Of a DNA stretch of 64,000 nucleotides, positions 19,947 to 52,782 are shown piece after piece. A program made the position numbers and the translations under genes. Positions within the stretch are counted from its first letter, which is position 1. Every line of letters starts with the position of its first letter. The DNA comes from an uncultured Clostridia bacterium (GTDB taxonomy: Bacteria > Bacillota > Clostridia > Christensenellales > CAG-314), in the NCBI GenBank assembly GCA_944364615.1, contig CALVWF010000005.1, forward strand, positions 76,311 through 140,310, read 5' to 3'. Below the pieces are notes generated by a model. The model saw only the letters and a list, made by a program, of their open reading frames with translations, did no database searches and was not told the DNA's origin.

Positions 19947-20220
19947 ATACATACAAACCGTTGAAGCGGAAGTAAAGGCAACGATGACTTCACAGAGAGC
20001 CTGCGATGGTGAAAATCAGGCAAGAAACAAGTTGTCAAATGGGCCGCCGAGGGTGTAGTCAAATGCACTTGTGCAAAGTATTCTACAACGTGTTGACATA
20101 CGTCAGTTGTCGGGAATATGTCTGTATTCCTCAAAGCGCACGGCGGCAGCCGTGAATCAGGGTGGCACCGCGGATAGTTTATTCGTCCTTGACAGAGTTT
20201 TTCTGTCGAGGACTTTTTTT
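19947..20220 (+). promoter_or_regulatory. T-box riboswitch leader, probable Trp (UGG) specifier
   Basis: Stem I elements AGAGAG (about 19994) and GGTGAAAA (about 20008), and a candidate specifier UGG at 20040-42 followed by a purine. The conserved T-box sequence AATCAGGGTGGCACCGCG is at 20155-20172. The terminator gtccttgacagag/ctgtcgaggac plus T7 is at 20185-20220. The downstream gene is trpB. Confidence 0.85.
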
Positions 20221-21672: not shown

Positions 21673-21771
21673 GTTTGCACGTGTCAATACACAGATCTGA
21701 CGAATTGGCACTATCATTTCAATTTCCGGAATTGTTTACAAGTCACGAAAAAATTTAAATCACTTTGCAGT

Positions 21772-21804
21772 AAAAAAGGGCGAAAAGGTCACACCTTTTC
21801 GCCC
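21772..21804 (-). terminator. rho-independent terminator closing the starch locus
   Basis: The minus strand reads gggcgaaaagg-tgtga-ccttttcgccc followed by TTTTTT, 40 nt downstream of the MalK-like stop. Confidence 0.8.
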
Positions 21805-21845: not shown

Positions 21846-23882
21846 TCAGATGATGCGTATTCCTCGCAAGGTTTCCACTACTCCCAACCTGGGAAGATTG
21901 AGCGCGAGTTTTACGTTGTCGCCCTGCTTTACACCGCTGTTGCCGAGATACACATTGACTTGTGCTTCGCCTGCTTTTACAACGGCGATTTTTTCCGTTC
22001 CGTAGTCCAGTATTTTTTCCACAACGCCCTCTATACCGCTGTCGGCTGTCATCACGTCGTATATACCGAAGTCCACGGTCAGTTCCGTTTCAAACGCTTT
22101 GCGTCCCAAAGCGTTGAAAATCTTTGTCGCGATATAGTCTGTAAGGTAAATTTCTGCCCCGGCAACTTCAAGTGCGAAGTTGTATTTCTTTTTGCCCGTC
22201 TGCTCCTTTACGACGCGGGCGCTTAACGTGTTTGTAAGCGCAAATGCCTCAGTAACTTTTTCCTCGCCTGTAAAGGTCACTTTTTTCCAATCAACGGCAA
22301 CGGAAAGCGTCTTCACGTTGTCCACGCCGTTGCCGATGGCAAACAGTTTGTTTTTGTTTACTTTCAGTCTCAGCAAACGCGTCTTGCCTATATCTTCCAC
22401 CGACTCTATTTCGGCGTCGAAAGCCTTGTTAAACTGCAACTCGTATTGTTCGAACTGTTCGCAAGGGTAGGTTTTAACCAGATTTTTAAGTGCTTTGTTA
22501 GCGTATTTTTCCCCTACAGGCTCAACGGAACACAATTTGTGCGATTCTTCCACAGAGGTTAGTGGCGTTTCAAAGCCCTTGAATATAAACGCGTCGGATG
22601 GGATGTTGAGGATGTAGTCGCCGTCGGGCAAATCTATTGCAGACGGCAATGCGATGTCAGCGCCCAACAAATCGACCTTGCCGCTCTTTACCTTTGCTTT
22701 TACAAGATTGTATTGCGGAATTCGCGGCATAATGGTCATTTCCGTTTCGTTGTCAAACAGATGTATGCACTGCGGGTCTATCGCGACGGTGATGTCCTGA
22801 TTTTTGTCTATTTCCGCCTTCGGATCGACTTTTAACGTAAGACGTGTGGACGAATCGCCTATAGCGTCGTTTTCCTCGTCCAGTTCACAGTAAACAATAG
22901 TTTCGCTTCCCAACGCTTCGATAAGACTTGTACGACAGGTAAACGCCGTTTCCTTGTGCTCCGATACAAATTTTTCATCCCAATGAACGTCCTCAGGTCT
23001 GACTCCCAGAGTCACCGTCGTGTTGCCGTCCAGATATTTACCGTCCGTCTTTGCCACGACATCTTCGTCCAGCAAAATTTTCCTGTTGTTTGCAAACGTG
23101 ACTTCCACCTTTCCGCCCTCCGTCTTTTTCAACGTGGCGTCGAAGAAGTTCATTTGCGGAGTGCCTATAAACCCTGCCACAAATTTGTTTGCCGGATATT
23201 TGTAAAGATTTTTGGGAGTATCTATCTGCTGTACAACGCCCAGTTTCATTACCACTATTCTCGTACCCATTGTCATGGCTTCAACCTGGTCGTGAGTTAC
23301 GTAAATGAATGTGGTCTGCAACTTGTTGTGAAGTTTACTTATTTCCGTTCTCATCTGAGCGCGCAGTTTAGCGTCAAGGTTACTGAGCGGTTCGTCCAAC
23401 AGGAACACCTTGGGATCACGCACTATCGCTCTGCCCAGCGAAACTCTCTGACGCTGACCGCCCGACAACGCGCGGGGTTTTCTGTCAAGGAATTGTTCGA
23501 TATCCAATATACGCGCCGCTTCGTTGACTCTGTCGTTGATTTCTTCCTTGGTAAACTTTTTGCTCAGTTCCAACGCGAAAGCCATATTTTCCCGAACCGT
23601 CATATGAGGATACAGAGCATAGTTCTGGAAAACCATTGCAATGTTTCTTTCCTTCGGTTCGACGTCGTTTACCACCTCGTCGCCTATCATAAGTTCGCCC
23701 GCCGTAATTTCTTCCAACCCCGCTATCATCCTCAGAGTTGTACTTTTACCGCAGCCGGAAGGTCCTACAAAGACAATAAACTCCTTGTCTTCTATTTCCA
23801 TACAGAAATCGTTGACGGCTTTGACTCCGTTTGCGCCGTTGTCATACACTTTGTATATGTGTTTTAAACTTAAACTTGCCAT
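21846..23882 (-). CDS. sugar ABC transporter ATPase (MalK/MsmX-like) with roughly 280-aa C-terminal extension
   Basis: Residues 1-395 form a complete MalK-type NBD plus TOBE-like regulatory domain (Walker [38 protein letters not shown]). Residues 396-678 are an extra region with no motif I recognise, except TOBE-like beta-rich repeats. Confidence 0.85.
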
Positions 23883-23896
23883 AACACAATTACCTC

Positions 23897-26782
23897 TTAA
23901 TCCTGAACAAGTATATATGTTGTGTAAGCAGGCACAACTACCGCGCCGTTACCAACAGTTACAGTACTGTCGAAATTGAACGTACCGTCCTTGCTGTTGC
24001 CAATCAGTCTCCAACTGTCGCTGAAAGTTATACTGCTGCTTGTGGTACCTGCATTGCAGATAACCATCACTTTACTGTATTGATCGGCAGCATTCATTCT
24101 TTCCGTACAGAATACGAGCGTCTGCGAATTTGCACCCGGCATTGCGTATCCGTCGGAGAAGTTGTAAATACCGTTGGTCATTATCGCGTCGCCGCGACAA
24201 ATCGTAGTGAACCGCTGTGTACGCAGTTCTATAAGTCCCTTGTACCAATTGAACAGCGAAGCAAATTCTTCCTGTCTGTAATAGTCAAATGCGTTGATTT
24301 TGTCCTGAGCATTGTAACTGTTGTGGTTGCCGTATTTGGTACGAGCGATTTCCTCTCCTGCAAGTATGAAACTTGTGCCTTTGCCCATAAGCGTGATGGA
24401 AGCAGCCATCATGTTTCGGCGAAGAACAAGGCTGTTGCCCTCCGAGTACACGGTGGGAGTCACCGTACCTACCGTCGTTGCCACCAACTGATCCCACAAC
24501 GTGTAGTTGTCGTGTGACGTTGTATAAATTACTGACTTGTCAGAGGTAAGTTGTCCCCAGTGAGATCCTCCCTGCATACCTACCAGCAACCTGTTGTAAA
24601 TGTCCGAGGATGTATTGCCGTTGACAAATCCGGAAGACAGCGAGTTGTTACCCTTTACGCCCTCTCTTACCGTATCGTTAAACACCTTTATTCCTTCGCT
24701 GAGCAGATGTACGTTGCTCATATTTGCGACGGACAAACCGTAGGCGGGATCCAGTCCTACCGTTGCGGCTGCCCAAGGTTCGCCGTACATGAGTATTCCG
24801 GAACCCCCTTCCACCTTGGTGTCGAGTGCCTGACGTATCATGTTCATTGTTTCGGTGTCGTGGCATCCCATCAGGTCAAAACGGAAACCGTCGATGTGGT
24901 ATTCCTGTGCCCAGTACAGCAACGAATTTATCATGTAACTGCGGTACATTTCTCTTTCGCTTGCAGTTTCGTTACTGCAACCTGTGCCGTCGCTTAGGTT
25001 GTAAATTCCTAAAAGATTGGTTGTCCACGACTGCATACCGAATGTGCCCGCCTCGCCTGACAGTTCCTGACGGTAATAGTAACCGGGAACGGTCTGATCG
25101 AACCAACCGTTTGAAGTATACGTGTGATTGTACACAACGTCCATAATCACACCGATACCTGCCTGATGCAACGCCTGCACCATCTGCTTGAATTCGTTTA
25201 TACGCACGGCGCCGTCTTCGGCATTTGTTGCGTAACTTCCCTCGGGGACATTGTAGTTTTTAGGATCGTATCCCCAGTTTTGCTTCGTAGCGTAATCGAT
25301 ATTGTTGTTATACTCCTCGTCCACCGTTGCGAAATCGTAGACGGGATTGAGATGTACATATGTAACGCCCAGTTCTTTAAGATAAGAAATACCGGTCTTT
25401 ACGTTGTCGTTTCCTTTGGCTGTGGTGTCCTGTTCGGTAAAGGCAAGATACTTGCCCTTGTAAGTAATACCGCTGTCGGCGGAAATGGAAAAGTCACGCA
25501 CGTGTATTTCCCATATAACGGGAACAAGCGAATTGTTTTGCCTTATTTCTTCGGCAAGTTTCAGATCCTCATCCCATCCGTCGGGATCGGTAGCATCCAG
25601 GTCGCACACCATTGCTCTGTTGCCGTTTATTCCTACCGCTGTAGCGTAAGGATCGCACACTTCGTTTACCGAACCCGCAACATAGTTGGTGTACGTATAA
25701 TAAATTCCGTCCAGATCGCCTTTTACCGTTGCTTCCCATACTCCCTTGCCGGTCATGGTCATCGCTACGGCACTGTCATACAAAGTGTCATCCGTTTCGT
25801 CCCCGGAAACATACAGATTTATAAGGACGTTGGTAGAAACGGGAGCCCACAATCTGAATGTAGTTTCTGTGGGAGTATAAGTGCAACCCAATTCGATGTC
25901 TGTCAGCCCGTCGCCGTCGGCGTCGGCAGGAAGACAATCGCTTTTAAACTGTTCGGACAGGTAAAGTCTTGTCTTGTCTATGGCAGTCGGGAATGCGTAC
26001 CCGTCCATCCACAACATATAATCGGCATTCCAGTCGAAGTTGTCGATGTCCACGGCAATTCTGCTGTTGAGACCTTCGCCCGTAAGCACTTCCGTCACGT
26101 TGCCTGACGCTACCTGTTCGCCCTGTTCGTCTGCAATCGTGTCCGTCACTTCGTAAATTCTGTAGCCTGTTTCGTTGGTTACCAAAGACGTGGTCTGAAT
26201 ATACACGTTGTTGAAATCGTCAAATCTTGCCGATTCGATTCGTTCAAATGCCGATTGCGCAGCGGCAAGCGAAGTGTAATTGTTCTTGTCACCTGCAATT
26301 ATCCAAACCTCGTAAGTGTTGTTCTGGTCAAGAGTCACTTCGAGGAATCTGTCGCTGGACAGGTCTTTTCCCTTGTTACCGCACCAGTAAGGAGTATAGG
26401 TGTTTGTTTCGTCCACATACGCCCTTACCATTATCAGTCCGAGTTTCTTACCCGATTTGACCGCACTTGTTTCCATTGCGTTCAATGTAATCGTGTAGGT
26501 CTGTCCGATGTTGTCGTCCCTGTAAAAATCCGGATCCTTGCCGTCGGTGGGCACAATCTTACCGATGTCTATCCAGTAGTACGCTCCCCATGAGATGTCG
26601 TTTTTACCCTCCCACTGGTCGTATTCGTACTGCCCGTCACCGTTGTAAAAGTGTACGATCACCTTAGCCGAATCACTGTTTTCGGCGATTGCATTGCCTA
26701 TTGTCTGAACAGGCAACAGATTAAACGCCATTACAAACAGCAAAACAATGCTCAAAATTCTGATTTTGTTTAATGTCTTCAT
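23897..26782 (-). CDS. pulA: secreted type I pullulanase (GH13, with N-terminal CBM41/48-like modules)
   Basis: The start is taken at [20 protein letters not shown] (Sec signal, AIA/EN). The longer ORF would overlap malG. GH13 regions are present: [20 protein letters not shown] (pullulanase-specific) and TSHDN. A CBM48-like TFRLWAP...GVWE segment precedes the catalytic domain. Confidence 0.88.
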
Positions 26783-26792
26783 AACATACCTC

Positions 26793-27698
26793 TCAGCCTT
26801 TAACGGCACCGCCCGTAATACCTTCCACAAAATATCTTTGCAGAAGCAGGAACAGAATCGTAATGGGGACAGCAACGCACACTGCGCCTGCCGCAAACAG
26901 ATTGTACCACTGCGCAGGTATTTCCGCCATTGCTATCCACCTGTACAATCCCACCGCAACTGTATAGGCTCCGCTGTTTTCTTTAAGAATAAAACTTGCA
27001 AATATAAAGTCGCCCCAAGGCGCCGTAAAACTCATCAACGCCGTGTAAACTATGATAGGTTTGGACAACGGAAGCATTATTTTTCTGAACACCTGACTGT
27101 TTGTTGCGCCGTCGATACGTGCTGCCTCGTCCAGCGATTTGCTGACGGTGTCGAAAAATCCCTTTGAAACGTAGTAACCCAAAGCCGCACTTCCCGAGTA
27201 AACCATTATAAGAGCAAGAATTTGTTTCCAGTTTTCCACGTTTCCGGCAAGTCCGATGCCTTTGAATATGTAATAAATGGCAACCATACTCATAAAGCCC
27301 GGAAACATTCCCAGTATAAGTCCGATGTTCTGAATGGTCTTTCTCGACTTGAAACGGAAACGGCTCATAACATATGCCATGCTCAGCGTGAAAAACGTAG
27401 ACAGTACCATGCACGCAAGAGATATGATCAATGTGTTGAGATACCATGTCGGAAATTCGGTTTCCGTAAACAATTTTACATACCAGTTGACGGTATAATG
27501 GGACGGAAGTATGTCCGGCGATCCGTAAGTGGACTGATAAGGAGCATCCGGTTCCATACCGAAGGATTGTAATATAAGCCATATCAAAGGCAATATCCAG
27601 CAAATACTCAAAATGGTGAGGATTGTGTAAATTGCCGATTTACTGATGGCTTTACGGCGTTTCATACCGCCGTTAGTCTTTTTAAAATCGTAATCCAT
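26793..27698 (-). CDS. sugar ABC transporter permease (MalG-like)
   Basis: 301 aa, 6 TM, with the EAA loop LDEAARIDGATNSQVFRKIMLP. A 1-nt TAATG overlap with the upstream permease. Confidence 0.9.
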   Translation of the reverse strand: MDYDFKKTNGGMKRRKAISKSAIYTILTILSICWILPLIWLILQSFGMEPDAPYQSTYGSPDILPSHYTVNWYVKLFTETEFPTWYLNTLIISLACMVLSTFFTLSMAYVMSRFRFKSRKTIQNIGLILGMFPGFMSMVAIYYIFKGIGLAGNVENWKQILALIMVYSGSAALGYYVSKGFFDTVSKSLDEAARIDGATNSQVFRKIMLPLSKPIIVYTALMSFTAPWGDFIFASFILKENSGAYTVAVGLYRWIAMAEIPAQWYNLFAAGAVCVAVPITILFLLLQRYFVEGITGGAVKG

Positions 27699-29185
27699 TA
27701 TTGGAAATCCTCCTCATTCTTAGTACTCGAAGAGCGTCTGTAAGTTATAAGCGACACAATGGAACAAATAATAAACGTCAGAATACCTATAGTGGAAGCC
27801 AGGTTGTAGTTTCCCGTGTCATTGGTAAGGCTGTACAGCCACGTTACCAGAAGCGAAGTCGAGCCTGCGCCCTGACTGAGTTCGCCGAAAGGACCTCCTC
27901 CTGTCAGAAGGTATATAACGTTAAAGTTGTTGATATTGCCTATAAACTGAGTTATAAGGTAAGGCCCCGTGACAAACAGTATGTAAGGCAACGTTATCTT
28001 GCGGAACATCTTGAATTTGCCTGCGCCGTCGATACGAGCCGATTCGTACAGATCTTGCGGAATGTTCATAAGAATACCCGACGTAATCAGCATCGAATAG
28101 GGAATACCGATCCACAAATTGACGGAAATGACAATAAGTCTTGCGCTGGAAGCCGTTTCGAACCAGTTGGTACGGGGGAATCCGAGTTGAACCAACAAAT
28201 TCATTATAGGTCCGAATTCGCTCAACATACTGCGCATCAGCAACAGACTGACAAACTGCGGAATGGCAATTGTCAATACAAAACACAGTCGCCATATTTT
28301 CTTGCCTTTTATTCCTTTGCTGTTTATCAGAAGCGCAAGTCCCACACCTAAAAAGTAGTTTAAAAATGTTGCGCATATTGCCCACACTATCGTCCAGCCA
28401 AGTACGGGGAAAAACGTACTGGAAAGATCGTTGGACCCCAGAAGTTTAATAAAGTTTTCAAATCCTACCCATGTAAAACCGCTTGTTTCGGGGTGAGCCG
28501 AATCGTAGTTGGTAAAGGCAATCAGTATCATGAATATCAACGGAAGTATGGTAAATATTACAACTCCCGCAAACGCCACTACCAACAACAGTATGTAAAA
28601 CTTTTTGTCAAACAGCGATTGCATGTCCTGTCTGAACGTAGAGGGTTTTACTCCTATTACGCTGTCTTTATAATTGGCAACCGCACTGCGTATATTTAAA
28701 AGGTACACCGCAATAAAAGCGAACACCACAATTACGGCAACTACGCCGTACAACAAAAACAGCATTGAGTTGTCGCCAGGGACATTTACTTCGATGCCGG
28801 TACCGAGATCTACGTCGTAGTAAGTGTAGGTAAAGTTTGTACCCAATGTTACCAGCCCGGCAAGAGAACCTACTCCGTTAAAAGCCATATAAAGTATAAA
28901 CAGCAACTCAATGGCAAGATATCCCAGACCTTTGACGATCTGACCGTGTGCAAACGCACCGCTACCCATAATAAAGTAACTGCATCTGACGCCTGCGTCC
29001 CCCTCGGCAAAGTTTCTGCCGAAACGGACAAATCCGTCTGCTATTTTTCTACCGAATTTTTTGAGGTTTGTGGGGATTTTTCTGAAAAACCCCACAAACG
29101 ATCTGCCGAAATTCCTAAACCAACCGGCAATTTTATTGCCGACGTTTGCAAAGAATCGCGACGCTTTATTAGAAGAACCTGTCAT
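27698..29185 (-). CDS. sugar ABC transporter permease (MalF-like) with basic N-terminal extension
   Basis: 495 aa with the EAA loop LYESARIDGAGKFKMFRKITLP. The N-terminal roughly 60 aa carry a repeated FGR/FxR basic motif before the first TM helix. Confidence 0.9.
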   Translation of the reverse strand: MTGSSNKASRFFANVGNKIAGWFRNFGRSFVGFFRKIPTNLKKFGRKIADGFVRFGRNFAEGDAGVRCSYFIMGSGAFAHGQIVKGLGYLAIELLFILYMAFNGVGSLAGLVTLGTNFTYTYYDVDLGTGIEVNVPGDNSMLFLLYGVVAVIVVFAFIAVYLLNIRSAVANYKDSVIGVKPSTFRQDMQSLFDKKFYILLLVVAFAGVVIFTILPLIFMILIAFTNYDSAHPETSGFTWVGFENFIKLLGSNDLSSTFFPVLGWTIVWAICATFLNYFLGVGLALLINSKGIKGKKIWRLCFVLTIAIPQFVSLLLMRSMLSEFGPIMNLLVQLGFPRTNWFETASSARLIVISVNLWIGIPYSMLITSGILMNIPQDLYESARIDGAGKFKMFRKITLPYILFVTGPYLITQFIGNINNFNVIYLLTGGGPFGELSQGAGSTSLLVTWLYSLTNDTGNYNLASTIGILTFIICSIVSLITYRRSSSTKNEEDFQ

Positions 29186-29240
29186 AAAAATGCTTTCTCC
29201 TTCCAGTCTAATTGACTTTTAAATCAATCGCGTTGACGTA

Positions 29241-30467
29241 TCAGTTGCCCAGCAATCCTGCCTCGATGGTTTCAAGTTGTCCTTGCCATGCCGATGCAGC
29301 CTGAGTCTTTTTGAATACGCCTCCAAGGAACGTTCCCATAGGAGTCCAGTAACTTGACATCTGTGTGAACGCAGGTTTAAGACGTGTGTATTCCGCCTGA
29401 GTGATTACTACTTCTACTGCCTGAACACCGCTGTTTTCCGCTTCGGCATACAGCTCAAGGTTGGTAGGACAAAATTCTCTGTCTGTCAGTCTGATGTACT
29501 GATTGTCGTAGTTTGCAAGAAAGGCTGCAAGTTTAGCACATTCTTCGGGGTATTTCGTATTGCGGTTAACACCGTACAGTTTTACACCGCTGAAAGATAC
29601 CATTTGCGTGTCTTTGCCGTCAAGTTTTATTGTAGGCAACTTGGCGACCGCGTATTTGGAACCCAAAGCCGTCTTGAATTGTTCTACCATGTGAGGTCCG
29701 CTTATAATTGCCGCTACGTTACCGTTTTTCAATGCAGTAGCCTGTTCTTCTTCCGCAATGCTGTTGAACTTTGCCTTGCTTCCCAAATCAGCGATGTACT
29801 GGCATCCTTTCAAAGCGTATTCGTTGGCAATGTCCACGTCAGTGACGTCCTGACCGTCGGCGCCGAACAGTTCCATTCCTGCCGTGAAGAGGAATATACT
29901 TGTGTAATAAGCGTCGTCCATATCCATACCGATGTTGTATTCGGCACCGGTATTTGCCGAAATGAGAGTTTCAAGACTCTTGACCTGATCGGCACTGAGC
30001 AGGTCTTTGTTGTAATACAAGAAACAGTTTTCGTATGTATAGGGATAAGCGTAATACTGATTGTTGTATTTTGCCGCAACTTCCGCAATGCTTATCTGTT
30101 CGTCGGCAATTGTGGAATAGTACTGTGTGGGAACAGCCATTATCGCGTTGTTGTTGACAAGTGCTCCCAACTGGTCGGACGCGAAACTGAACACGTCGGC
30201 TGCAGTGGTAGGTTCGGAAATTACTCTGGTTCCTGCAACGTCTTCACCAACCGTCTGAACGGTCCAGTTGTAAGTGTTGTCGGGATTTGCAAGTTCGTAA
30301 TTGTACAGCATTTCCTCTACCATTGTCTGGTCCAGTTCGGCGCACCATACTTTTAAATTATATTCGCCCGATTCGCCGCCTTCTTCGGCAGGTGTACAGC
30401 CCGTCGCAGACAGGCACATTGTAAATGCGATGATCAACATCATTGTTACTGCAAATATTTTTTTCAT
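29241..30467 (-). CDS. extracellular solute-binding lipoprotein (maltodextrin-binding, MalE-like)
   Basis: The start is at MKKIFAVTMMLIIAFTMCLSATGC (lipobox ATGC, RBS AAGGAG). The type-I SBP pattern resembles maltose/maltodextrin binders (LKVWCAE..., AIISGPHM). Confidence 0.85.
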   Translation of the reverse strand: MKKIFAVTMMLIIAFTMCLSATGCTPAEEGGESGEYNLKVWCAELDQTMVEEMLYNYELANPDNTYNWTVQTVGEDVAGTRVISEPTTAADVFSFASDQLGALVNNNAIMAVPTQYYSTIADEQISIAEVAAKYNNQYYAYPYTYENCFLYYNKDLLSADQVKSLETLISANTGAEYNIGMDMDDAYYTSIFLFTAGMELFGADGQDVTDVDIANEYALKGCQYIADLGSKAKFNSIAEEEQATALKNGNVAAIISGPHMVEQFKTALGSKYAVAKLPTIKLDGKDTQMVSFSGVKLYGVNRNTKYPEECAKLAAFLANYDNQYIRLTDREFCPTNLELYAEAENSGVQAVEVVITQAEYTRLKPAFTQMSSYWTPMGTFLGGVFKKTQAASAWQGQLETIEAGLLGN

Positions 30468-30502
30468 TGTTTTTCTCCTTAAATATATATTGATCATTAA
30501 TT

Positions 30503-32428
30503 TCATTCAAAATCCGACTGCCACTTACCGTCTTTGTAGTAAATGTTGTCGAAATCGATGGTCAGGTCAGCCGTCTTATCGTTGTCATCACCTGTTCCCG
30601 CGTTGAAAATGATTTTTTCCGCTTTACCGCGAATGGTGATACTGTACCAGCCGTCTTTACCTTCCACAGCCTGCATTTTGTTGCCCGGCCAAGCATTGGT
30701 GACTTCCGTTGACGTAATTTCTACGTTGGGTGTGCTTTCCGTTGTGCCTGTGCTGAAATACAATTCGTGAGTTCCCATCTTGAAATAGAAATCGTAGATG
30801 CCGTCTTTGGCTATCACTATGTTGCCCTCTTCGTCAACAGTGTACAACGACTCGTCTACCCACGATTCAACACCGTTGTAGTAATTGTGTTGCGTTTCGC
30901 CCAGTTGAACTATCTTGAACTTACTTCCGGCAGAAAGTCTCAGTCCTTTAAACATATACTGATTGCTGCCGTCGAAGGACAGTTTTACACTGCTTTCCGT
31001 CGTCCACGCTTCGCCAAGACCTATATCGCCCATTATGACGAAATCTCCCACTGAAGGAGTTACCGCCTGCTGAGACTCGCGCCAAGCGTAAGCGTAAACA
31101 TTTTCCCAACCGTCAGCATTGTAGTAGTAAATCGTGGTATAGACAATACTTTCAATGTAAATATTCTTACCTTCGGAAGAGTAATCGAGATAGATGTCGT
31201 ATTCGCCCTGAGGCAATAAGATATTGCCCTCCGAATCCTGCTTAGCGGAAACTTCCTCCGCGTTGCTCAGTTTGGCGTAACCGTAAACTTCCTCACCGTA
31301 AGTGATGTTGACCGCATGCGTTCCGTCAAGTATAACCGCTTTCCACAGCATACGGGTACCGCTAAGAGAAGTATAAGTCATTCCGTCGGAGAAATCCCCG
31401 TTGACGCCCATCAGTTTGTAGTTCTTTTGCTGAGGTTGATCGTCGGGATCCGCCGGATCGGTAACATCGTCCGCAAAGGATATAGTCACCGTTGCGGTTA
31501 CCGTAACGTCATCTTCCGTATAGGTTACCGTAACAGTCTTGTCTCCCGCCGAGCCGTTGTGTTCGACTATGTCGGTGGTAAAATCGTAAACTTTTTTCTC
31601 GGCGTCGTTGTCGTAAAGTGCCGTAACGATCAGATACGCGTTGATGTCAGTCGTTCCTACCTGCAACTGCGGTCCCGTATAGAACGCCGTTATCGATACA
31701 AGTTTGCCCTGCGAAGGATCGGGATCGACAGGCAAACCGCCCGTGAGATCCGCCTCGGCGAAATTGCTCCAATCGCCGTCATCGTACCCTGTTACCTTTA
31801 CTTTAACCGCCAACTCGTACACCTTGTTTTCAAGTGTGGCAAGAATTGCGGAAATATCGAGAGTAATGTTGCCCGTAATGGAATTGGGTTTTATTTCGTA
31901 ATCGGCAAGACTTATTTCCGTTATTTCCGTTGCGCCCTTTTCACGTACTCCCAACACATATTCCGCATTGTTTTCCGTAACCTTACGCCATTTCAACGAA
32001 TGGGTTTCTCCGTCGTAGGTCAGATTTGAAACGGTACTTGCCTGACGCGAATACACAAAGGTCACCGCCTGCGCCCATTCGGACAGATTGTAAGGTATCA
32101 ATTTGTCCCCCTGTGTTTCCACTTTGACCGCACGAACGGTAACGCTGTTTTGTTCGCCGCTCTTTAACATCGAGGTGACTTCCGCGCCCGCAGTCTTGAT
32201 ATTGTAAGAAGTGTTCTGCGTCATAAACTGTGTTGACGCGTTTCCGTTAAACGCCAGCATATATCTGTCTGCGCCCTCAACCGCGTCCCAACTGATTACA
32301 AGACTGTTGCTTACAGTCAGGTTGGAAGGCGTTTCGCATCGGGTGTTGCTGCAGCCTGCAAGATTTGCAATACACAGCGCAAGCACGAGAATACCGCTTA
32401 ATATGACAATGGATCTTCTTTTAAACAT
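30503..32428 (-). CDS. surface lipoprotein with Fn3-like, Ig-like and CBM26-like starch-binding modules
   Basis: Lipobox LAGC. There are two Fn3-like repeats (SWDAVEGADRY type) and one Ig-like repeat. The C-terminal CBM26-like module is split by a nested roughly 128-aa domain (YYYNADGWENVYAYAW ... NAWPGNKMQAVEGKDGWYSITI...IIFNAG). Confidence 0.75.
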   Translation of the reverse strand: MFKRRSIVILSGILVLALCIANLAGCSNTRCETPSNLTVSNSLVISWDAVEGADRYMLAFNGNASTQFMTQNTSYNIKTAGAEVTSMLKSGEQNSVTVRAVKVETQGDKLIPYNLSEWAQAVTFVYSRQASTVSNLTYDGETHSLKWRKVTENNAEYVLGVREKGATEITEISLADYEIKPNSITGNITLDISAILATLENKVYELAVKVKVTGYDDGDWSNFAEADLTGGLPVDPDPSQGKLVSITAFYTGPQLQVGTTDINAYLIVTALYDNDAEKKVYDFTTDIVEHNGSAGDKTVTVTYTEDDVTVTATVTISFADDVTDPADPDDQPQQKNYKLMGVNGDFSDGMTYTSLSGTRMLWKAVILDGTHAVNITYGEEVYGYAKLSNAEEVSAKQDSEGNILLPQGEYDIYLDYSSEGKNIYIESIVYTTIYYYNADGWENVYAYAWRESQQAVTPSVGDFVIMGDIGLGEAWTTESSVKLSFDGSNQYMFKGLRLSAGSKFKIVQLGETQHNYYNGVESWVDESLYTVDEEGNIVIAKDGIYDFYFKMGTHELYFSTGTTESTPNVEITSTEVTNAWPGNKMQAVEGKDGWYSITIRGKAEKIIFNAGTGDDNDKTADLTIDFDNIYYKDGKWQSDFE

Positions 32429-32449
32429 TTTTGTCTACCTCCACGATCG

Positions 32450-34939: not shown

Positions 34940-34954
34940 AGCAAATCGTTTAAA

Positions 34955-37645: not shown

Positions 37646-37743
37646 TCCTGAAAATATGCTGATTTATAGAATTTCAAATTTAATACCGTAATTTTCCACC
37701 GCAGTACAGAACACTGTTCCGCACTGCGGGGAGATAATTAAAA

Positions 37744-39774
37744 TTACACTTCGCTTTGCATACCCAAATTCCAGTTGTCTCCCGGTATGGTCACATACAA
37801 GCCCGACATCAATTCAAGATTGTTGGTCTGATTCCACTTATTGTTCCAGTTGTTTTCCGTAGAACTTCCGTTCATACGGCAAACTATCATAGTTGCGGGA
37901 ACAAATTTTTCGCCGTTGTAATCTTTGACATTGGAAATATCCACGGCAAAGTACCTGTATTGCAATACGTCGTTGATATTCTGTCCGCCTACCGCCGTAA
38001 AGTCAAGCCAACATTCCTGCTTTTCTTCACCGTTCATTGTATAAAGGTTTACCGCAAATCTTGCTCCGTCACTTGTCCAGCCAGTATTTTGCGTCAAATC
38101 CAACACTACAATATTGCTGACATCTTGCTGAGCCGACCAACCTGTAATTGCGTAGTACGGCTTTGAAGTATCGCCAAGTGACAATGTGTTTGTCTGGTAA
38201 ACTGTACCGTTTTTACTTCCGTTAAATATTATATTTTCTGCCGTCGCGTCCACAGTAATCGAATACCATTTGCCTTCCACGGCGGTCATTGCCGTTCCGG
38301 GCCATTCACCGAGATGTTTGACTTCCGTTTCTCCCGTTCCCGACCATGCATAGGCGCTGACACTTTCCCATCCTGCAAAGTTGTAGAAATAGTAGGTGTT
38401 TGCGGTTACTTCAACTACCGTAACGGTAAAAGTCGCCGTCTTCGGGTTGTCTTCGCCGTAAGTAACGGTAACGGTAACGGTTTTTTCGCCTGCGACAGAA
38501 GTGTCAACCGACGACAAAGTGTATCCTTCCGTAATCCGTTCGGTCGTTCCGTCGCTGAATATGGCGTAAACCAAAACCTTGCCGGCGTCGAGTTTGCCGT
38601 TTATTTCAATCTCACCGCCTTCGTAAACTGCCTTTATCGAGTCAAAAACTTTTTCAACCGTAAGATTGTCTATAGTAAGTTGGAACGCTCCGCATGTCAG
38701 CGTCACGCTACCCGTCTGACCGACAGTATCGCTGACTACATCCGTCACTTCCGCAGACTGTGCGGGTTGCGTCGTGTCTCCGAGATCGTACGCTATGTCA
38801 TACACAGCATATACGTCGTCAATGTCGACGGTACCGTTGTGTTTGAGCACCAACGGCTGTTCCTCGTTCCTTAAGGTTGCCGTCAATCCCGAAGCAACGT
38901 AAACTTCCGTCTGGCACGTCAATGTAACTTCGCCGTCCGTATAGCCTAAAGTTACATTGTGTTTGCCTGCAGTTGACGAAATGTCGCTTGCGGTAAAGTT
39001 TTCCACTTCTTTAGAAGATCCGTCGCTGTAAGTTGCGGTGACCGTTACGTTGACAGAGGTCACCTCTTCCCCTGCCTTTACGGGGACACCTGTATACTGA
39101 GCGGTAACTTCGGTAAGCAGCGGTTGCTCGATTGTCGGCGTGTCGGTCGCAATTTTTATCGGACCACTTTCCGAATATTTGCTGTAACCTGCGACTAACG
39201 AATAATTTGCCCCTGAAATGACGTAGTCGTCACCGCCGTCAGCTGCGTTAATGACAAAAAATCCTGCGTACTTGCTGCCGTCTTCCGATTGGAAGTTGTA
39301 CAGATACAAAGCACGTCCCGTATTTTTCAGTTCGTTTAAATCGACCGTGGTGCTTTTGCCGTTGACGGTAAACGTAACCGTCTGTATTGCGTCGGCACTG
39401 CGCGACGTCTGAATATCAAAACCTTCTAAAGCACCCGCGTCGACAGCCGTACTGTCACTTGCAATGTTTAAAATATTGTTCGATTTGCCTGCCTGTCCCA
39501 ACTCAGCCAACTTCTGATCCATATAGACAAAATAGTAGCCGTCGTTGGAAAACACCATACCCGACACATCATTGTTGTCGGGATCATCGTCAAGCGTCAC
39601 CATAGAGATATATTCGGCAACAGCCATACGACAGTTGGACATCGCCGCAGACTTATTGGCAGATTCGACTACATTACTGAAAGTCGGTATAAGCACTGCC
39701 GCCAATATCGCTATGACCGCAATTACTATTACCAGTTCGGTAATTGTAAAAGCCTTCCTTTTTGATCTGTACAT
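37744..39774 (-). CDS. prepilin-type N-terminal domain protein with Ig-like repeats and a CBM26-like starch-binding module
   Basis: The N-terminus MYRSKRKA/FTITELVIVIAVIAILAAVLIPTF is a class III (type IV pilin-like) signal with Glu at +5. Three roughly 80-aa Ig-like repeats follow, then YYFYNFAGWESVSAYAW...GEWPGTAMTAVEGKWYSITV...NIIFNG (CBM26-like). The Trp-rich C-terminal roughly 130 aa are unassigned. Confidence 0.75.
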   Translation of the reverse strand: MYRSKRKAFTITELVIVIAVIAILAAVLIPTFSNVVESANKSAAMSNCRMAVAEYISMVTLDDDPDNNDVSGMVFSNDGYYFVYMDQKLAELGQAGKSNNILNIASDSTAVDAGALEGFDIQTSRSADAIQTVTFTVNGKSTTVDLNELKNTGRALYLYNFQSEDGSKYAGFFVINAADGGDDYVISGANYSLVAGYSKYSESGPIKIATDTPTIEQPLLTEVTAQYTGVPVKAGEEVTSVNVTVTATYSDGSSKEVENFTASDISSTAGKHNVTLGYTDGEVTLTCQTEVYVASGLTATLRNEEQPLVLKHNGTVDIDDVYAVYDIAYDLGDTTQPAQSAEVTDVVSDTVGQTGSVTLTCGAFQLTIDNLTVEKVFDSIKAVYEGGEIEINGKLDAGKVLVYAIFSDGTTERITEGYTLSSVDTSVAGEKTVTVTVTYGEDNPKTATFTVTVVEVTANTYYFYNFAGWESVSAYAWSGTGETEVKHLGEWPGTAMTAVEGKWYSITVDATAENIIFNGSKNGTVYQTNTLSLGDTSKPYYAITGWSAQQDVSNIVVLDLTQNTGWTSDGARFAVNLYTMNGEEKQECWLDFTAVGGQNINDVLQYRYFAVDISNVKDYNGEKFVPATMIVCRMNGSSTENNWNNKWNQTNNLELMSGLYVTIPGDNWNLGMQSEV

Positions 39775-39891
39775 ATACGCTTCTCCTTTTCTTTATTTTA
39801 CAGCATTTAAATAAATCGATATTTACGGAATACCGTCGTTAAACAGACCCGATTATTTGCAACGGACGGTATTTCCGTTTAAAACACGTCA

Positions 39892-39925
39892 CACCGTCGC
39901 AGACAAATCGGCGTCTGCGACGGTG
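39892..39925 (-). terminator. 13-bp hairpin between the first two genes of the starch locus (terminator/attenuator candidate)
   Basis: Perfect stem caccgtcgcagac / gtctgcgacggtg with an 8-nt loop. Only a short, interrupted T-tract follows on the minus strand, so it may be a partial terminator or an RNA-processing/stability element. Confidence 0.45.
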
Positions 39926-39962
39926 AATTTACACGTCATTTGTATAAAGAATGGTTTTTGTA

Positions 39963-42602
39963 TCAACCGATCGTTGCTACCCATTCCGTACCGTTGTAGT
40001 AAGGCGTTTCGGCATTGAGATCGAGATTTGCCGTCTTGTTTCCGCTGTTGTCGTTGAAGATGATCTTTTGCGCTCTTTCGTCAACACTTATACTGTACCA
40101 GCCGTCCTGTCCTTCAACCGCCGTCATTGCCGTTCCCGGCCATGTTTCCGTCAGAGTAACGGACGTCACCTGCATGTTGGGTGTACTTTCCGTAGTGCCT
40201 GTTTCGAAATACAATTCGTGAGTTCCCATCTTGAAATAGAAATCGTAGATGCCGTCTTTGGAAATCACTATGTTACCGTCGGAGGAATAGGTGTACAACG
40301 ACGCGTCTACATATTTTTCAAGTATGTTGTAATAAGTGTGTCCCGTTTCTCCCAGTTGCACTATCTTAAACTGCATTCCCGCCGAAAGTCTCAGCCCCTT
40401 GAATTCGTACTGGTTTGCGCTTTCGTTGTAGAACAGTTTTACACTGCTTTCCGTCGTCCACGCTTCGCCAAGACCTATATCGCCCATTATTACGAAATCT
40501 CCCGTTGCAGGAGTAACGGGTACCGCCTCTTCCATCCAGGCATAGGCATATACACTTGCCCAGCCATCGGCGTTGTAGAAGTAATAGGTAGTCTTGGGAA
40601 GTTCGTTGACTGTAACTTCAACAGTCGTTGTCTCGGTAATGCCGTTTTCGATATACGTTACGGTTACCGCCTGCAGGCCTGTCTTCGTGTTGACGAAGTC
40701 CGTCGTGTAATCCGTTACCGTTGCGCTTGCCGCTCCGTTGTAGTTTGCCGTTACCGTAAGTTCCAGCGTTCCTCCGTATTCTACGGTCGTTTCCGTTGCA
40801 ACGGCGGTTATTCCCGTAAGTTCTCTTGTAAACGTAACTTCCACTTCGGCTATCTTGCCTTGGTAAGTCACTACGTATATTGCCGTTCCTTCAACTGCGT
40901 TTGTGCTGCCCGCTTTGAGCGCAACAGACACGTTTTCTGTGTCGGAAACGGGTTGCCTTTCATTGTTGCTCATCACCTTGGTAACTTCAAGGTCGCTTGC
41001 CGTAATTTCCGTATTTACAAACACGACGCCCTGTGTAGTAAAGGTTACTTCGATACTTTCCAGCACTACAGGCACTTCGGGTTGTTCCGCTCTGCACACC
41101 GTGCAGAATCCGTCAACGTAGGTGTGTTCTTCCTTGGCAGTTGCGTATCCGCATGCGCACTCGTTCCAGTGGTGTGTGCTGTTGTGTTGCATTGTAAATT
41201 CTTCATGGGGCTGTGTGCTGTCGGCCTTTACGCTCAGACAGATTTCACATTCTTTCCAGTGATTGGTTTCGTCGTACTTTACTTCGTACCGATGTTCGAC
41301 CGCACGGACTTCGCCGCAAACGTTACAGTCAGCGTCGCAATCGTTGTCGTAAGTGTGTTCGGCAGTCGTTTCTCTTACTGCTCCACATTTATTACATGTT
41401 GCGTCACAGTCTCCGCTGTATTCGTGTATGCAGGGCATTGTCGGATACCACTTGTCTCCGTAAACGTAGTAATTGTTTACTCCGTCGATTTCGAGATTGT
41501 CTGTCTGATTAGTTCCGTCGTTGAAAATAACGTTTACCGCATTCTGATTGACGTCGATGTAATACCATCCGTTGTTTTCGGTATCCGCAGTCATTGCCGT
41601 TCCCGGCCACTCTCCGGTGTATTTTAAACTGCCCGTCCACGCATAGGCATTTACCGTTGCCCAACCGTCGGTATTATAGAAATACAATCTGTAAGTGGGT
41701 GCAACCGCAGGAGCCTGTACGGTAAAGTCTGCACCCCACTGTCCTGCGCCTGTCAGGTCGTTGTAGGCGTAGTAGTTGTTTTCGCCGTCGTAAGTCAGGT
41801 TACCCGTTTGGGCAGTGCCGTTGTTGAAAATCAACTTGTTGGGCGTCATACCCTCTTCGAAAGAGTAGGAAAACCAGCCGTCCTGACCGTCAACTGCAGT
41901 CATCGGTTCGCCGGGCCAGTCGCCTGTAAGTTCCGGTTCGTAAGTATATACGTTTACCGTCGTCCAACCGTCTTCACTTTTGAAATATATTGTGTCGCCG
42001 CCGGGTTGAGGAGCGGTACTGTCAACTACTTCAACAGAAAAAGTGCACGTCTTGGTAATGCCGTCTTCGGTGTAAGTAACAGTCAATGTCTTGACGCCTA
42101 TTGTGGAAGAATCCAAAGTGCTCACTTCGAATTCGGAAACTTTTTTAGTGGTCTGATCGCTGTAAGTTGCGGTCACACTTACAAAAGAAGTATTGAGAGG
42201 CGCATTAAGTTCTACCGGTTTGCCCACGTAAACTGCCGTAACGGACACGAGTTCGGCTTTGGCTACTTTTTTCCTCCAGCCTGCGTAAAACGTTGTGTCG
42301 GCAGTTATCTTGTTGATGGGACTTTGCGTTACACCGCTGGAAAGGAAGGTTTCTTCTATAAGACATTCCTTGTCTACAAACCAGCCTTTAAAGGTGTAGT
42401 CGGGTCTGTCGGGATCGGCAGGTTTCGTGGCACGATCGCCTTCTTCTACCTTTACGGTGTACGGTGCGGGTGCTCCGTCATAATTGTAATCGAAAGTCAC
42501 CGTATATGTAACAGGTTCAGTTGCTGCCGGTTTGCATGCGACAAGGCTGACCGCAAGCGTCGCGACCAGCAAAACCGACAAGAAAACTTTACAAAATCTC
42601 AT
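39963..42602 (-). CDS. surface lipoprotein with Listeria-Bacteroides repeat, Ig-like repeats, three CBM26-like modules and a Cys/His-rich insert
   Basis: Lipobox LVAC and an Flg_new repeat (YTFKGWF...FYAGW). CBM26-like modules lie at about aa 204-280, 303-385 and 671-879; the last is split by the nested domain. A Cys/His-rich segment spans aa 391-505. Confidence 0.78.
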   Translation of the reverse strand: MRFCKVFLSVLLVATLAVSLVACKPAATEPVTYTVTFDYNYDGAPAPYTVKVEEGDRATKPADPDRPDYTFKGWFVDKECLIEETFLSSGVTQSPINKITADTTFYAGWRKKVAKAELVSVTAVYVGKPVELNAPLNTSFVSVTATYSDQTTKKVSEFEVSTLDSSTIGVKTLTVTYTEDGITKTCTFSVEVVDSTAPQPGGDTIYFKSEDGWTTVNVYTYEPELTGDWPGEPMTAVDGQDGWFSYSFEEGMTPNKLIFNNGTAQTGNLTYDGENNYYAYNDLTGAGQWGADFTVQAPAVAPTYRLYFYNTDGWATVNAYAWTGSLKYTGEWPGTAMTADTENNGWYYIDVNQNAVNVIFNDGTNQTDNLEIDGVNNYYVYGDKWYPTMPCIHEYSGDCDATCNKCGAVRETTAEHTYDNDCDADCNVCGEVRAVEHRYEVKYDETNHWKECEICLSVKADSTQPHEEFTMQHNSTHHWNECACGYATAKEEHTYVDGFCTVCRAEQPEVPVVLESIEVTFTTQGVVFVNTEITASDLEVTKVMSNNERQPVSDTENVSVALKAGSTNAVEGTAIYVVTYQGKIAEVEVTFTRELTGITAVATETTVEYGGTLELTVTANYNGAASATVTDYTTDFVNTKTGLQAVTVTYIENGITETTTVEVTVNELPKTTYYFYNADGWASVYAYAWMEEAVPVTPATGDFVIMGDIGLGEAWTTESSVKLFYNESANQYEFKGLRLSAGMQFKIVQLGETGHTYYNILEKYVDASLYTYSSDGNIVISKDGIYDFYFKMGTHELYFETGTTESTPNMQVTSVTLTETWPGTAMTAVEGQDGWYSISVDERAQKIIFNDNSGNKTANLDLNAETPYYNGTEWVATIG

Positions 42603-42642
42603 TGTAAATCCTCCTGAAATTTAGAGATACTAAGATATAATA

Positions 42643-42671
42643 ATTATAATCTTGAGTATATCGAATGTCAA
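42643..42671 (-). promoter_or_regulatory. consensus sigma-A promoter of the starch locus
   Basis: The minus strand reads TTGACA (42671-66), a 17-nt spacer, then TATAAT (42648-43). AGGAGG and the ATG at 42602 lie about 35 nt downstream. Confidence 0.7.
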
Positions 42672-43066
42672 TACCGAACTTTGCCACAAAGCGGTACATT
42701 TTTGAAAAATCAATAGTTGAAATTTATATTTTTAACACCACGTACTGTAAAAAATATGTAAATAATTATTTTTGAGAAAATTTAAAATTTTTTTTAGTTT
42801 TTTTTGACGTACGTAGCAGAAAAAAAATGTTAAATACAAATGTAGTTTGTTTTTGTCCTAACATTTGCAATCGCATCTGTTTGAACCGAATTGCATGTAA
42901 AATACCGCAGTAATAAAGATGTTCCGAAACAGTTTGTCTTGCATCCGAAAAGCAACTTCGGAAATGCCGTATAACTACAAAAACAACCTTAATTCAGTAA
43001 AAAAACAAGCCGACAAAACACAGAGTTTGTCGGCAGAGCATCTTATAAAACAACGTTAATTCAATT

Positions 43067-44041
43067 TTACCGTACAACGATTTTCTGATCGGTAAACAAT
43101 GGCAAAATTTCCAATGACGACTGATTTTTTCTGTTGTCGGTCAGCGAAACTTTTGTGATGCTGTTGTCAGAATAAGTCTTGTAGTAGTAATCCGCGTTTG
43201 TTGCGTCTATACAGCAGGAATATCTCGTAATGTCGTACAGCCTTCGGGAAGTTACCACCGATCCCCGTACCATTGCCACGCTGTCAAGAATGTGCATTAC
43301 CTGCGAAACACAGGACAGTGTGTCGGTGTCGCAATCCGACATATATTTTAAAAATACCGTTCGGACAAATCTGGACGCTGAGGAAAAGTCTCCCGGCAGC
43401 CCTATTGCTCCCATGCCTTCACCGAAATAGGAGGCGGACAGCCTGTCGCCAAAGCCCCCCGTTGTGTTTTCGGCAGACAAATTGAGGTATTGCCTTATAT
43501 TCTCGGTGTGAAACGGAAAGGGAGGATTGTTGGTAAGAACACCGTAGCCGTTGGCGTAAATTTTTCTTCCCTCATCGGTAAATTCCGCCACAATGCTTCT
43601 GTTTCTGTCGGAAACAATCCAGTGCAACGGAGCGACAGGAAGATTTTCAGTAAAAGCGACGTCTGCAACTTCCGTTTCCGACAACAGGCTTTCCGCCTGC
43701 GCAACGCTGTCGCACTGCCCGAGAACGTACGGTATAAGTTCGTATGGCGCTAATGCGTTTGCACTGTTTTTGACGGTTTGGGAATAATGAGCATTTTGCG
43801 GAAAATACAGACCTGCCATACACAGTCCTTTTTCGTTGACTGCTTCGGCATACAACGGATAACCGTCGGTTACGTTTGCCATTCCAATCATTGCGTATCT
43901 GACAGTAAACGAAGGTTGTAATTTCATGGGCAACAGAAAATTACGAGGAGTAATCACTACCTTTTCTCCGAATCCTTGCTCTATATCCATATTGCGTCCG
44001 AAATAAAAATTGCCGTTGACAAATGTAAATGCCGTACACAT
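43067..44041 (-). CDS. choloylglycine hydrolase family protein (bile salt hydrolase / penicillin V acylase-type Ntn hydrolase)
   Basis: MCTAFTFVNGNFYFGRNMDIE has Cys2 as the N-terminal nucleophile followed by the R/D catalytic residues of the family. The start is chosen at 44041 (RBS AAGGAAA) so that Cys is residue 2; the track ORF starts 18 nt upstream. Confidence 0.85.
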   Translation of the reverse strand: MCTAFTFVNGNFYFGRNMDIEQGFGEKVVITPRNFLLPMKLQPSFTVRYAMIGMANVTDGYPLYAEAVNEKGLCMAGLYFPQNAHYSQTVKNSANALAPYELIPYVLGQCDSVAQAESLLSETEVADVAFTENLPVAPLHWIVSDRNRSIVAEFTDEGRKIYANGYGVLTNNPPFPFHTENIRQYLNLSAENTTGGFGDRLSASYFGEGMGAIGLPGDFSSASRFVRTVFLKYMSDCDTDTLSCVSQVMHILDSVAMVRGSVVTSRRLYDITRYSCCIDATNADYYYKTYSDNSITKVSLTDNRKNQSSLEILPLFTDQKIVVR

Positions 44042-52740: not shown

Positions 52741-52782
52741 GCGTTAGTAACGTAAATCGAATATTCTGCCTTATAACCTCGA

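Follow-up and report, generated by a model that had tools for sequence, protein, structure and literature searches.

Key gut bacteria feed on starch that has escaped digestion, and to our knowledge few of the architectures that capture it are understood: the Bacteroides Sus system, the amylosome of Ruminococcus bromii and the sortase-anchored amylases with multiple carbohydrate-binding modules (CBMs). Here we describe a locus of an uncultured gut Clostridia bacterium (GTDB lineage Christensenellales; CAG-314), situated in a stretch of 64,000 nt of contig CALVWF010000005.1 (assembly GCA_944364615.1, positions 76,311 to 140,310 of the forward strand), which is referred to below as the window. 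A scan of open reading frames (ORFs) placed ten consecutive ORFs, numbered g1 to g10 in the direction of reading, all on the minus strand between positions 21846 and 42602 (Table 1), at the positions given in a first-pass annotation made from the letters of the window without database searches. According to our analysis, these genes probably form an operon for the utilisation of alpha-glucan (starch), and its products include a CBM26 binder, g2, borne on a type IV pilin.

The enzymes and the importer were assigned by a Pfam scan of the ten proteins at E <= 0.01, together with NCBIfam models and solved structures. The alpha-amylase domain of g3 scored 258 bits; the best solved relatives of this protein are AmyA (1wza) and a T. 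maritima glucanotransferase, and SusG matches too. The earlier description of g3 as a GH13 lipoprotein holds, while its length of 896 aa probably has to be shortened to 893 aa, with the second GTG as the start. In the same way, g9 is a secreted GH13 pullulanase as proposed, with M39 of the 999-aa ORF as the real start, giving 961 aa. It passed the NCBIfam equivalog TIGR02104 (560 bits, cut-off 504.5), its PUD match is borderline (24.9 bits, cut-off 25), and its best solved relatives are Amy10 and Amy12 of R. bromii (E about 1e-128). The genes previously named MalE, MalF and MalG were recovered as a solute-binding protein and two permeases, the first two of the three being MalE- and MalF-like. 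Among solved structures, g6 (SBP_bac_8, 97 bits) comes closest to MalE1 (5mk9) and to a CUT1-family binding protein (4ua8); g6 itself is probably 408 aa long, from a later start than that of the maximal ORF. The match of g7 to the NCBIfam MalF model has E = 2.5e-55, yet it lies below the cut-off.

The remaining proteins are mainly binders. Motif mapping gives six CBM26 modules across four proteins (g1, g2, g4 and g5), in line with the earlier count of at least six CBM26-like modules in four proteins. Five of them exceed the Pfam threshold (curated cut-off 28.1 bits), and two of these five are split. The CBM26 score of g1 is 156 bits over three stretches, with modules beginning at residues 205 and 306 and the third, split one at residues 673-879; Flg_new in the same protein reaches 40.5 bits. 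In g5, CBM26 scored 43.8 bits in two stretches, and a sequence search of the PDB gave nothing useful. Alignment of the split modules of g1 and g5, which are 66% identical, reveals an insert of ~125 aa after the first strand pair, beyond which the module picks up again at a WPGxxM motif; the same split module recurs in orthologues of the pilin g2. The insert of g5 matches SusF_SusE weakly (E = 0.0033, 18.2 bits, cut-off 27.5, with weak matches in the range E = 0.003-0.005). The Cys/His-rich region of g1, with repeated CxxC and HxW...C motifs, matched no Pfam family and recurs in an expanded form in the pilin orthologues P0016-P0019. Neither the PDB nor NCBIfam yielded a match for g4, whose signal peptide is kept in the related loci L006 and L007. 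Its earlier label as a GLUG protein was rejected, as that family reaches E = 2.3 only, below the threshold.

Five of the proteins are lipoproteins according to their lipoboxes (Table 1), namely the binders g1, g4 and g5, the amylase g3 and MalE. The motif scan revealed no LPxTG signal in the ten proteins, Pfam gave no cohesin or dockerin match at the threshold used, and SLH domains were not found in them either, which agrees with the first-pass annotation on all three points.

Table 1. Positions and main characteristics of the genes and other elements of the locus.
Feature	Position	Strand	Characteristics
Promoter, sigma-70-type	42643..42671	-	TTGACA-17-TATAAT; 40 nt upstream of g1 start codon
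g1, lipoprotein, 879 aa	39963..42602	-	lipobox LVAC; Flg_new, Ig-like domains, three CBM26, Cys-rich repeats
g1, Cys/His-rich region	41088..41435	-	residues 390-505
g1, split CBM26	39966..40586	-	residues 673-879
Hairpin in g1-g2 gap	39892..39925	-	perfect 14-bp stem, without canonical U-tract
g2, modular type IV pilin, 676 aa	37744..39774	-	class III signal KRKA/FTITE; pilin module ~1-200, Ig-like, CBM26 461-545
g3, GH13 alpha-amylase lipoprotein, 893-896 aa	34955..37645	-	lipobox LTAC; N-terminal Flg_new, catalytic domain 353-831
g4, lipoprotein, 829 aa	32450..34939	-	lipobox LTAC; FN3-like repeats, GGIxG-repeat region, CBM26-like residues 651-712
g5, lipoprotein, 641 aa	30503..32428	-	lipobox LAGC; FN3-like and Ig-like domains, split CBM26
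g5, split CBM26	30506..31132	-	residues 433-641
g6, MalE-type maltodextrin-binding lipoprotein	29241..30467	-	ATGC, PROSITE-compatible; 408 aa from ATG at 30467, ORF reaches 30506
g7, MalF-type permease, 495 aa	27698..29185	-	BPD_transp_1, 77.6 bits
g7, N-terminal tail	28991..29185	-	residues 1-65
g8, MalG-type permease, 301 aa	26793..27698	-	BPD_transp_1, 67.9 bits; start overlaps g7 stop codon
g9, secreted type I pullulanase, 961 aa	23897..26782	-	Sec signal without lipobox; CBM48, GH13
g10, MalK/MsmX-type ABC ATPase, 678 aa	21846..23882	-	ABC_tran, OB_MalK, TOBE_2 ending near residue 380
g10, extension	21849..22730	-	residues 385-545 and 546-678
Intrinsic terminator	21771..21804	-	GGGCGAAAAGG-tgtga-CCTTTTCGCCC, then TTTTTT; 42 nt past g10 stop codon

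Taken together, the CBM26 binders, the GH13 amylase, the type I pullulanase and MalEFGK bear out the capture, degradation and import of an alpha-glucan that had been predicted for the locus, while the "granular" nature of the starch in that prediction derives from the CBM26 family. The target may also be soluble alpha-glucan, such as maltodextrins, glycogen, pullulan or the products of primary degraders, and not granular or resistant starch. Besides starch, CBM26 also binds maltooligosaccharides, and binding of short oligosaccharides by an R. bromii CBM26 is cited in PMC13271388; in addition, neither CBM74 nor another granule-specialised module was found in the Pfam scan of the ten proteins. 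On the other hand, six CBM26 together with extra, unassigned beta-rich modules would provide a high multivalency, which is typical of the capture of insoluble substrates, and we regard a soluble target as a plausible but less probable case.

The binder g2 differs from the others in its N-terminus, MYRSKRKA/FTITELVIVIAVIAILAAVLIP (also written MYRSKRKA/FTITELVIVIAVIAILAAVLIPTF; the slash marks the predicted cleavage site), with a basic leader, Phe at mature position 1, Glu at mature position 5 and then a hydrophobic stretch. Pfam recognised N_methyl (23.3 bits, cut-off 21.2) and CBM26 (58.4 bits, residues 462-529) in this protein, and its conserved C-terminal domain (about residues 550-676) has no assigned family. 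The residue at position -1 is Ala, as is usual in the pilins of the related clusters L011 and L012; the orthologues of g2 possess the canonical signal KG/FTITE with Gly at this position. Mature residue 1 of the 13 solved pilins compared aligns to F9 of g2. Furthermore, over residues 1-200 the protein shares 44% identity (E = 1e-48) with a stand-alone pilin of 236 aa. The gene of the latter belongs to the L011 cluster, which also holds more pilins, a prepilin peptidase (Peptidase_A24) and a platform gene (T2SSF). With its class III signal, whole pilin module and grafted CBM26, g2 corresponds to the sequence definition of a modular pilin and, on these grounds, is a complete one. The AlphaFold2 (AF2) model of g2, with a predicted local distance difference test (pLDDT) value of 50.9, supports the long alpha-1 helix (residues 11-60) and the CBM26 region only.

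Genes for a prepilin peptidase or for pilus assembly are absent from the 64-kb window. A sister species carries on a single contig of 992 kb both the orthologous starch locus (L007) and, at a distance of about 480 kb, a pilus cluster (L012) with Peptidase_A24, the platform protein T2SSF and the ATPase T2SSE; the first 50 mature residues (alpha-1) of the starch pilin of this species are 78% identical to a 131-aa pilin of L012. The locus is therefore not the self-contained machine that had been proposed, because the pilin-anchored g2 needs a prepilin peptidase encoded elsewhere, and probably also a type IV pilus assembly system, which in the sister genome lies those ~480 kb away.

The pilus genes missing from the vicinity of g2 in the window are compatible with a simpler role of its N-terminus, as a mere membrane anchor or export signal of a protein that never polymerises, alpha-1N holding the cleaved protein in the membrane. 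In this case g2 would be comparable to sugar-binding proteins of Sulfolobus that have class III signal peptides, the precedent being the "bindosome" (PMC3047682). The cargo is very large (676 to 1618 aa), and the same N-terminus, fused in many proteins of related Clostridia to enzymes such as alkaline phosphatase and to beta-helix domains, looks like a general display signal. However, g2 has kept the entire globular pilin module beyond the signal, and the alpha-1 region has stayed at 74-78% identity to the stand-alone pilins found in pilus clusters, as expected if alpha-1 packs in the core of a filament. Moreover, the filaments of Streptococcus sanguinis present large modular pilins (PMC8179133). 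For these reasons a role as an anchor only appears to us a tentative alternative, somewhat below even chances, to g2 as a modular pilin that is presented on a filament.

Within this clade, large binders and enzymes may generally reach the cell surface by way of the class III signal. A broader proposal, in which the type IV filament would serve as a starch-grappling device, with operon-encoded CBM26 modular pilins, a remote assembly machinery and the class III signal as a general display route, is at present rather unlikely as a whole; if true, it would constitute a third Gram-positive solution for starch capture beside amylosomes and sortase-anchored amylases.

Many large proteins of related Clostridia, 450-860 aa in length, were also observed to combine the pilin N-terminus KKA/FTITELVIVIAVIAILAAVLIPTF with alkaline phosphatase, beta-helix or Flg_new domains. 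Examples of such pilin-headed fusions lie at 1672-12574 of L012 and 10001-16877 of L011, and include P0059, P0082, P0071 and P0110. In L012, four of these genes immediately precede the pilus machinery.

The conservation of the gene order in relatives, which the first-pass annotation had suggested examining, was evident in L001-L003, L006 and L007. An identical g5 protein is encoded on 16 metagenome contigs, and strains L001-L003 have the same gene order. The same order was found, at 56% identity, in Candidatus Limihabitans stercoravium (L006), a metagenome-assembled genome of Clostridia that was the sole species representative recovered from the genome collection; Candidatus Limihabitans is the closest relative with a name. 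In the sister species (L007) the order is g1-like lipoprotein, pilin-CBM26 protein, GH13 lipoprotein, 829-aa protein, 654-aa protein and MalEFG, preceded by a promoter in which the perfect hexamers, their spacing and the AAAGTTsGGTA motif beside them are unchanged. While gene order and promoter are thus conserved across species, the pilin cargo varies: the pilin has 676 aa here, 997, 1143 and 1618 aa in close strains and 1070-1497 aa in other species (variants at 1-4689 of L001 and 245-4738 of L006, P0003 and P0012). Ig-like Big_3 domains are recorded on relatives of g2 with >=94% identity. In the allele P0012, the modules known from g1 as Cys-rich and Ig-like are present, which suggests, as far as sequence can tell, an exchange of modules between the adjacent g1 and pilin genes.

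With regard to transcription, the array is as tight as had been described, although the best-supported starts replace the reported gaps of 1-190 nt by a range from a 1-nt overlap up to 188 nt. The perfect promoter and the strong terminator that had been assigned to the ends of the locus were both recovered. TTGACA-17-TATAAT has this one perfect match in the window (0.02 expected), and the terminator has a GC-rich stem of 12 bp followed by TTTTTT at 21804-21771. The terminator scan found no canonical minus-strand terminator inside the locus. However, the largest gap (188 nt, between g1 and g2) contains a hairpin, which raises the possibility of two transcription units. The g1 transcript would then mostly end at this hairpin, g2-g10 would be transcribed by read-through or from an unrecognised promoter, and far more g1 than other products would be expected. 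The hairpin is strong, the folding energy of the g1-g2 intergenic RNA being -55.8 kcal/mol (z = -4.4), and L007 has a similar one (CACCGTTG...CAACGGTG) in the corresponding place (about 9820-9850), as does L006, where it precedes the pilin gene (about 55-90). It may act as a partial terminator or attenuator, or as a stabiliser of the g1 mRNA, and owing to its conservation after g1, transcription strictly as a single unit is not assured. Two separate units are nevertheless doubtful, as the U-tract is missing, for which reason the hairpin was not called by the terminator scan; the gap holds no promoter with >=10/12 consensus matches, and the remaining gaps are <=107 nt, several being 10-21 nt or overlapping.

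The last gene of the array, g10, deviates from the MalK/MsmX pattern of a single OB/TOBE regulatory domain and a length of ~360-390 aa. Its nucleotide-binding domain (NBD) and canonical regulatory domain (RD) occupy residues 1-384, and residues 1-385 are 59% identical to Clo1313_2554 of C. thermocellum and 52% identical to MsmX of B. subtilis. Among the NCBIfam models, the UgpC-type subfamily was passed (467 bits, cut-off 432) and the MalK equivalog was not (426 bits, cut-off 568). The extension of 294 residues had no match in Pfam or the PDB. Its two parts, X1 (residues 385-545) and X2 (residues 546-678), were found by hhalign to be related to the regulatory domain and to each other (RD vs X1 90%, RD vs X2 96%, X1 vs X2 97% probability), and the AF2 model (pLDDT 83.5, predicted TM-score 0.79) contains two more beta-rich domains. 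As judged from these comparisons and the model, the extension consists of the protein's own regulatory domain twice more, in diverged form. BLASTP of the extension against the canonical domain gave no signal, the repeat being visible to profile-profile comparison only. In a Foldseek search, the model matched ordinary MalK/MsmX chains with half of the query covered and no chain spanning the extension; the TM-score to solved MsmX-type chains, normalised to the solved chain, was >=0.9.

A homology search with the extension alone returned nothing, though the parent protein is in the same collection. Relatives of the extension number 74 among 1.84 billion representatives, about two dozen of them being MalK-like proteins of 617-848 aa. 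Long MalK proteins are present in alpha-glucan loci that are orthologous or similar (L006, 675 aa; L017, 682 aa), next to LacI genes in an alpha-glucan locus and a fructan locus (L013 and L015), and beside nagA/nagB in L014. The extension is thus real, rare and conserved, and has no specific tie to loci lacking a regulator. The N-terminal tail of MalF (g7) is basic and Phe/Gly-rich with repeated GxFxxFGR-like motifs. Both L006 and L007 have conserved it, and MalF of the long-MalK locus L013 has one of a similar kind. It is pure speculation that this tail contacts the extra MalK domains.

The earlier statement that no regulator lies inside or beside the locus agrees with our domain scans, in which no DNA-binding or two-component domain was detected in the ORFs scanned there. 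The sole helix-turn-helix protein found in the window, of the Xre type, is encoded at 1495-2487, 20 kb away. The cre/LacI operator TGWAANCGNTNWCA (<=1 mismatch) has three matches in the 64 kb (7.5 expected), none of them near the promoter. The inverted repeats in 42600-43070 are AT-rich, low-information pairs only, and Rfam, applied to the whole window and permissively to the leader, gave nothing in or upstream of the locus. No LacI-type gene was present in the covered sequence of the conserved loci L001-L003, L006 and L007. The locus may be expressed constitutively or regulated remotely.

In E. coli, the regulatory domain of MalK mediates the binding of MalT and EIIA-Glc. With two more copies of this domain, the extension of g10 might be a regulatory device that senses a ligand or sequesters a remote transcription factor, as in the case of E. 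coli MalK/MalT, and replaces LacI/MalR; the first-pass annotation had considered the extension as such a substitute. Its conservation in the orthologous loci (L006 and L017) would fit this role, as would the absence of a regulator or cre site nearby. Against it, the alpha-glucan and fructan loci with a long MalK have an adjacent LacI gene (L013 and L015), one long MalK stands beside nagA/nagB (L014), and strong constitutive expression would suit the perfect, conserved consensus promoter just as well. Since long MalKs also adjoin LacI genes, the extension, which is built from regulatory-domain copies of MalK itself, does not obviously replace a regulator, and we consider this role very improbable.

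Based on these results, the following course of starch utilisation appears likely. The consensus promoter would drive the ten genes. At the cell surface, the lipid-anchored multi-domain CBM26 proteins g1, g4 and g5 would hold starch, as would g2, the modular type IV pilin with CBM26 in its cargo. The lipid-anchored GH13 amylase g3 and the released type I pullulanase g9, acting as a free debranching enzyme, would then cut starch to maltodextrins. These would be captured by the lipoprotein MalE (g6) and imported through MalF and MalG (g7 and g8), powered by the MalK/MsmX-type ATPase g10 with its three tandem regulatory domains. Processed by a prepilin peptidase encoded elsewhere, g2 would most likely be displayed on a type IV filament or at its tip, a location that would bring the starch binder out past the cell wall.

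Several points weigh against this explanation. The function is predicted from sequence in an organism that is uncultured; this applies to starch binding and hydrolysis, to the single transcript, and to the cleavage of g2 and its assembly into a filament. Starch binding by g1, g2 and g5 is presumed from their membership in the CBM26 family, and the CBM26-like module of g4 scores 25.8 bits, under the cut-off of 28.1. The fold of the g2 head is not confirmed structurally because the pLDDT there is below 50. A cargo of 470-1400 aa is bulky for incorporation into a filament, and the pilus machinery was seen in the sister species and in L011, which is not assignable to this species, not in the window. 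The hairpin after g1 could end some transcripts. Finally, the locus is without cytoplasmic maltodextrin enzymes, so that the pathway has to continue elsewhere.

A Gram-positive polysaccharide utilisation locus (gpPUL) is defined by a polysaccharide-degrading enzyme, a transporter and a regulator (Sheridan 2016; PMC5320581). The locus contains the enzymes (the GH13 amylase g3 and the type I pullulanase g9) and the transporter (the MalE, MalF, MalG and MalK homologues g6-g8 and g10) and contains no regulator; as the definition requires one, the locus would work like a gpPUL while falling outside the definition on this third component. With the gpPULs of Roseburia and Eubacterium rectale, among them the starch locus of the latter, it shares the clustering of GH13 and ABC transporter genes on one strand, and CBM26 for starch. 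The amylases of these bacteria are described as anchored to the cell wall (PMC13271388), those of the E. rectale Amy13K type by a C-terminal LPXTG sorting signal, which is not found in this locus, where anchoring relies on lipoboxes and a pilin and where four separate non-catalytic binding proteins are present.

The amylosome of R. bromii (PMC4611034, PMC9112005), to whose Amy10 and Amy12 g9 is closest, belongs, like the locus, to the starch systems of gut Clostridia. Its Sas proteins are likewise non-catalytic CBM26 binders, and it differs from the locus in its use of cohesin and dockerin. The Sus system of Bacteroides thetaiotaomicron follows the same logic, with lipoprotein binders (SusE/SusF) and a lipoprotein GH13 enzyme (SusG, which g3 matches) beside an importer, and the insert of g1 and g5 weakly resembles the SusE/SusF domains. 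In contrast to Sus, the locus is without a SusC/SusD pair (no SusC or SusD domain was found in the ten proteins) or an outer membrane, imports via MalEFGK and has CBM26 binders. The resemblance is therefore one of functional analogy, as we interpret it, and not of family membership.

Modular pilins are known from S. sanguinis, with PilB and PilC, and a survey covers more than 1,200 such proteins in 264 architectures (PMC8179133). PilB (vWA) and PilC (lectin) have the same class III signal, small pilin module and grafted adhesive cargo in a monoderm (PMC8179133, PMC9934059), and PilC is a precedent for a carbohydrate-binding cargo. Unlike them, g2 carries a starch module of the CAZy type together with Ig-like domains, is encoded in a catabolic operon and has a larger, strain-variable cargo. 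The bindosome of Sulfolobus solfataricus (PMC3047682) also comprises sugar-capturing proteins of an ABC pathway with a class III signal and an assembly resembling a type IV filament. It differs in being archaeal and in that the solute-binding proteins themselves have the pilin signal, whereas here MalE is an ordinary lipoprotein and g2 a binder of polysaccharide. As for g10, it shares the NBD and the OB/TOBE regulatory domain with E. coli MalK and B. subtilis MsmX (52-59% identity to MsmX-type structures) and is distinguished by three tandem regulatory domains and 678 aa, against 340-393 aa for the solved sugar-transport ATPases.

In a literature search of limited extent, whose negative outcome is not a proof of absence, we found no description of CBM26 combined with a pilin or a lipoprotein in such an architecture, of a modular pilin with CBM26 cargo or inside a catabolic operon, or of the display of a Gram-positive starch binder by a type IV pilin. 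Where pilin and CBM26 occurred in one paper, the former were the sortase-type pilins of bifidobacteria. Starch and CBM26 terms do not occur in the portion of the supplement text of PMC8179133 that was covered (32.5 k characters), which says little. The surface architecture had initially been called unlike the described models. This applies to the joint use of lipoprotein tethering and a modular type IV pilin in a starch operon, which appears to be new; of its components, the tethering mirrors Sus, and modular pilins are already known (PMC8179133).

The locus suggests a further capture architecture, with Sus-like lipid-anchored binders and amylase operating without an outer membrane, and a starch-binding type IV pilin would link pilus biology to polysaccharide foraging. 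In addition, it offers several testable oddities: a CBM26 with a nested domain, a MalK-type ATPase with a triplicated regulatory domain, and an operon with a consensus promoter and no regulator.

The genes on both sides of the locus, previously annotated as trpB and a member of the bile-salt hydrolase family, passed the corresponding NCBIfam equivalog cut-offs (TIGR00263, 531 bits, and NF038245, 374 bits, respectively). The trpB gene stands alone and is preceded by a T-box leader (19952-20193, plus strand; 92.7 bits against an Rfam gathering threshold of 93, E = 1e-20). Just past the bile-salt hydrolase gene, a protein of 2384 aa (44517-51671, minus strand) consists of BspA-type leucine-rich repeats over nearly its whole length (LRR_5, 679 bits, 9 stretches). 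The region 52000-64000 has a G+C content of 0.35-0.43, compared with about 0.45-0.49 elsewhere, contains PcfK-like/MutS_I, PcfJ-like and YpsA-family genes along with ORFs without a family, and is probably the remnant of a mobile element. Finally, a 585-aa fusion of DUF1385 and a PrmC-type methyltransferase (8249-10006, minus strand) is encoded directly upstream of the RF-1 gene (7181-8245).

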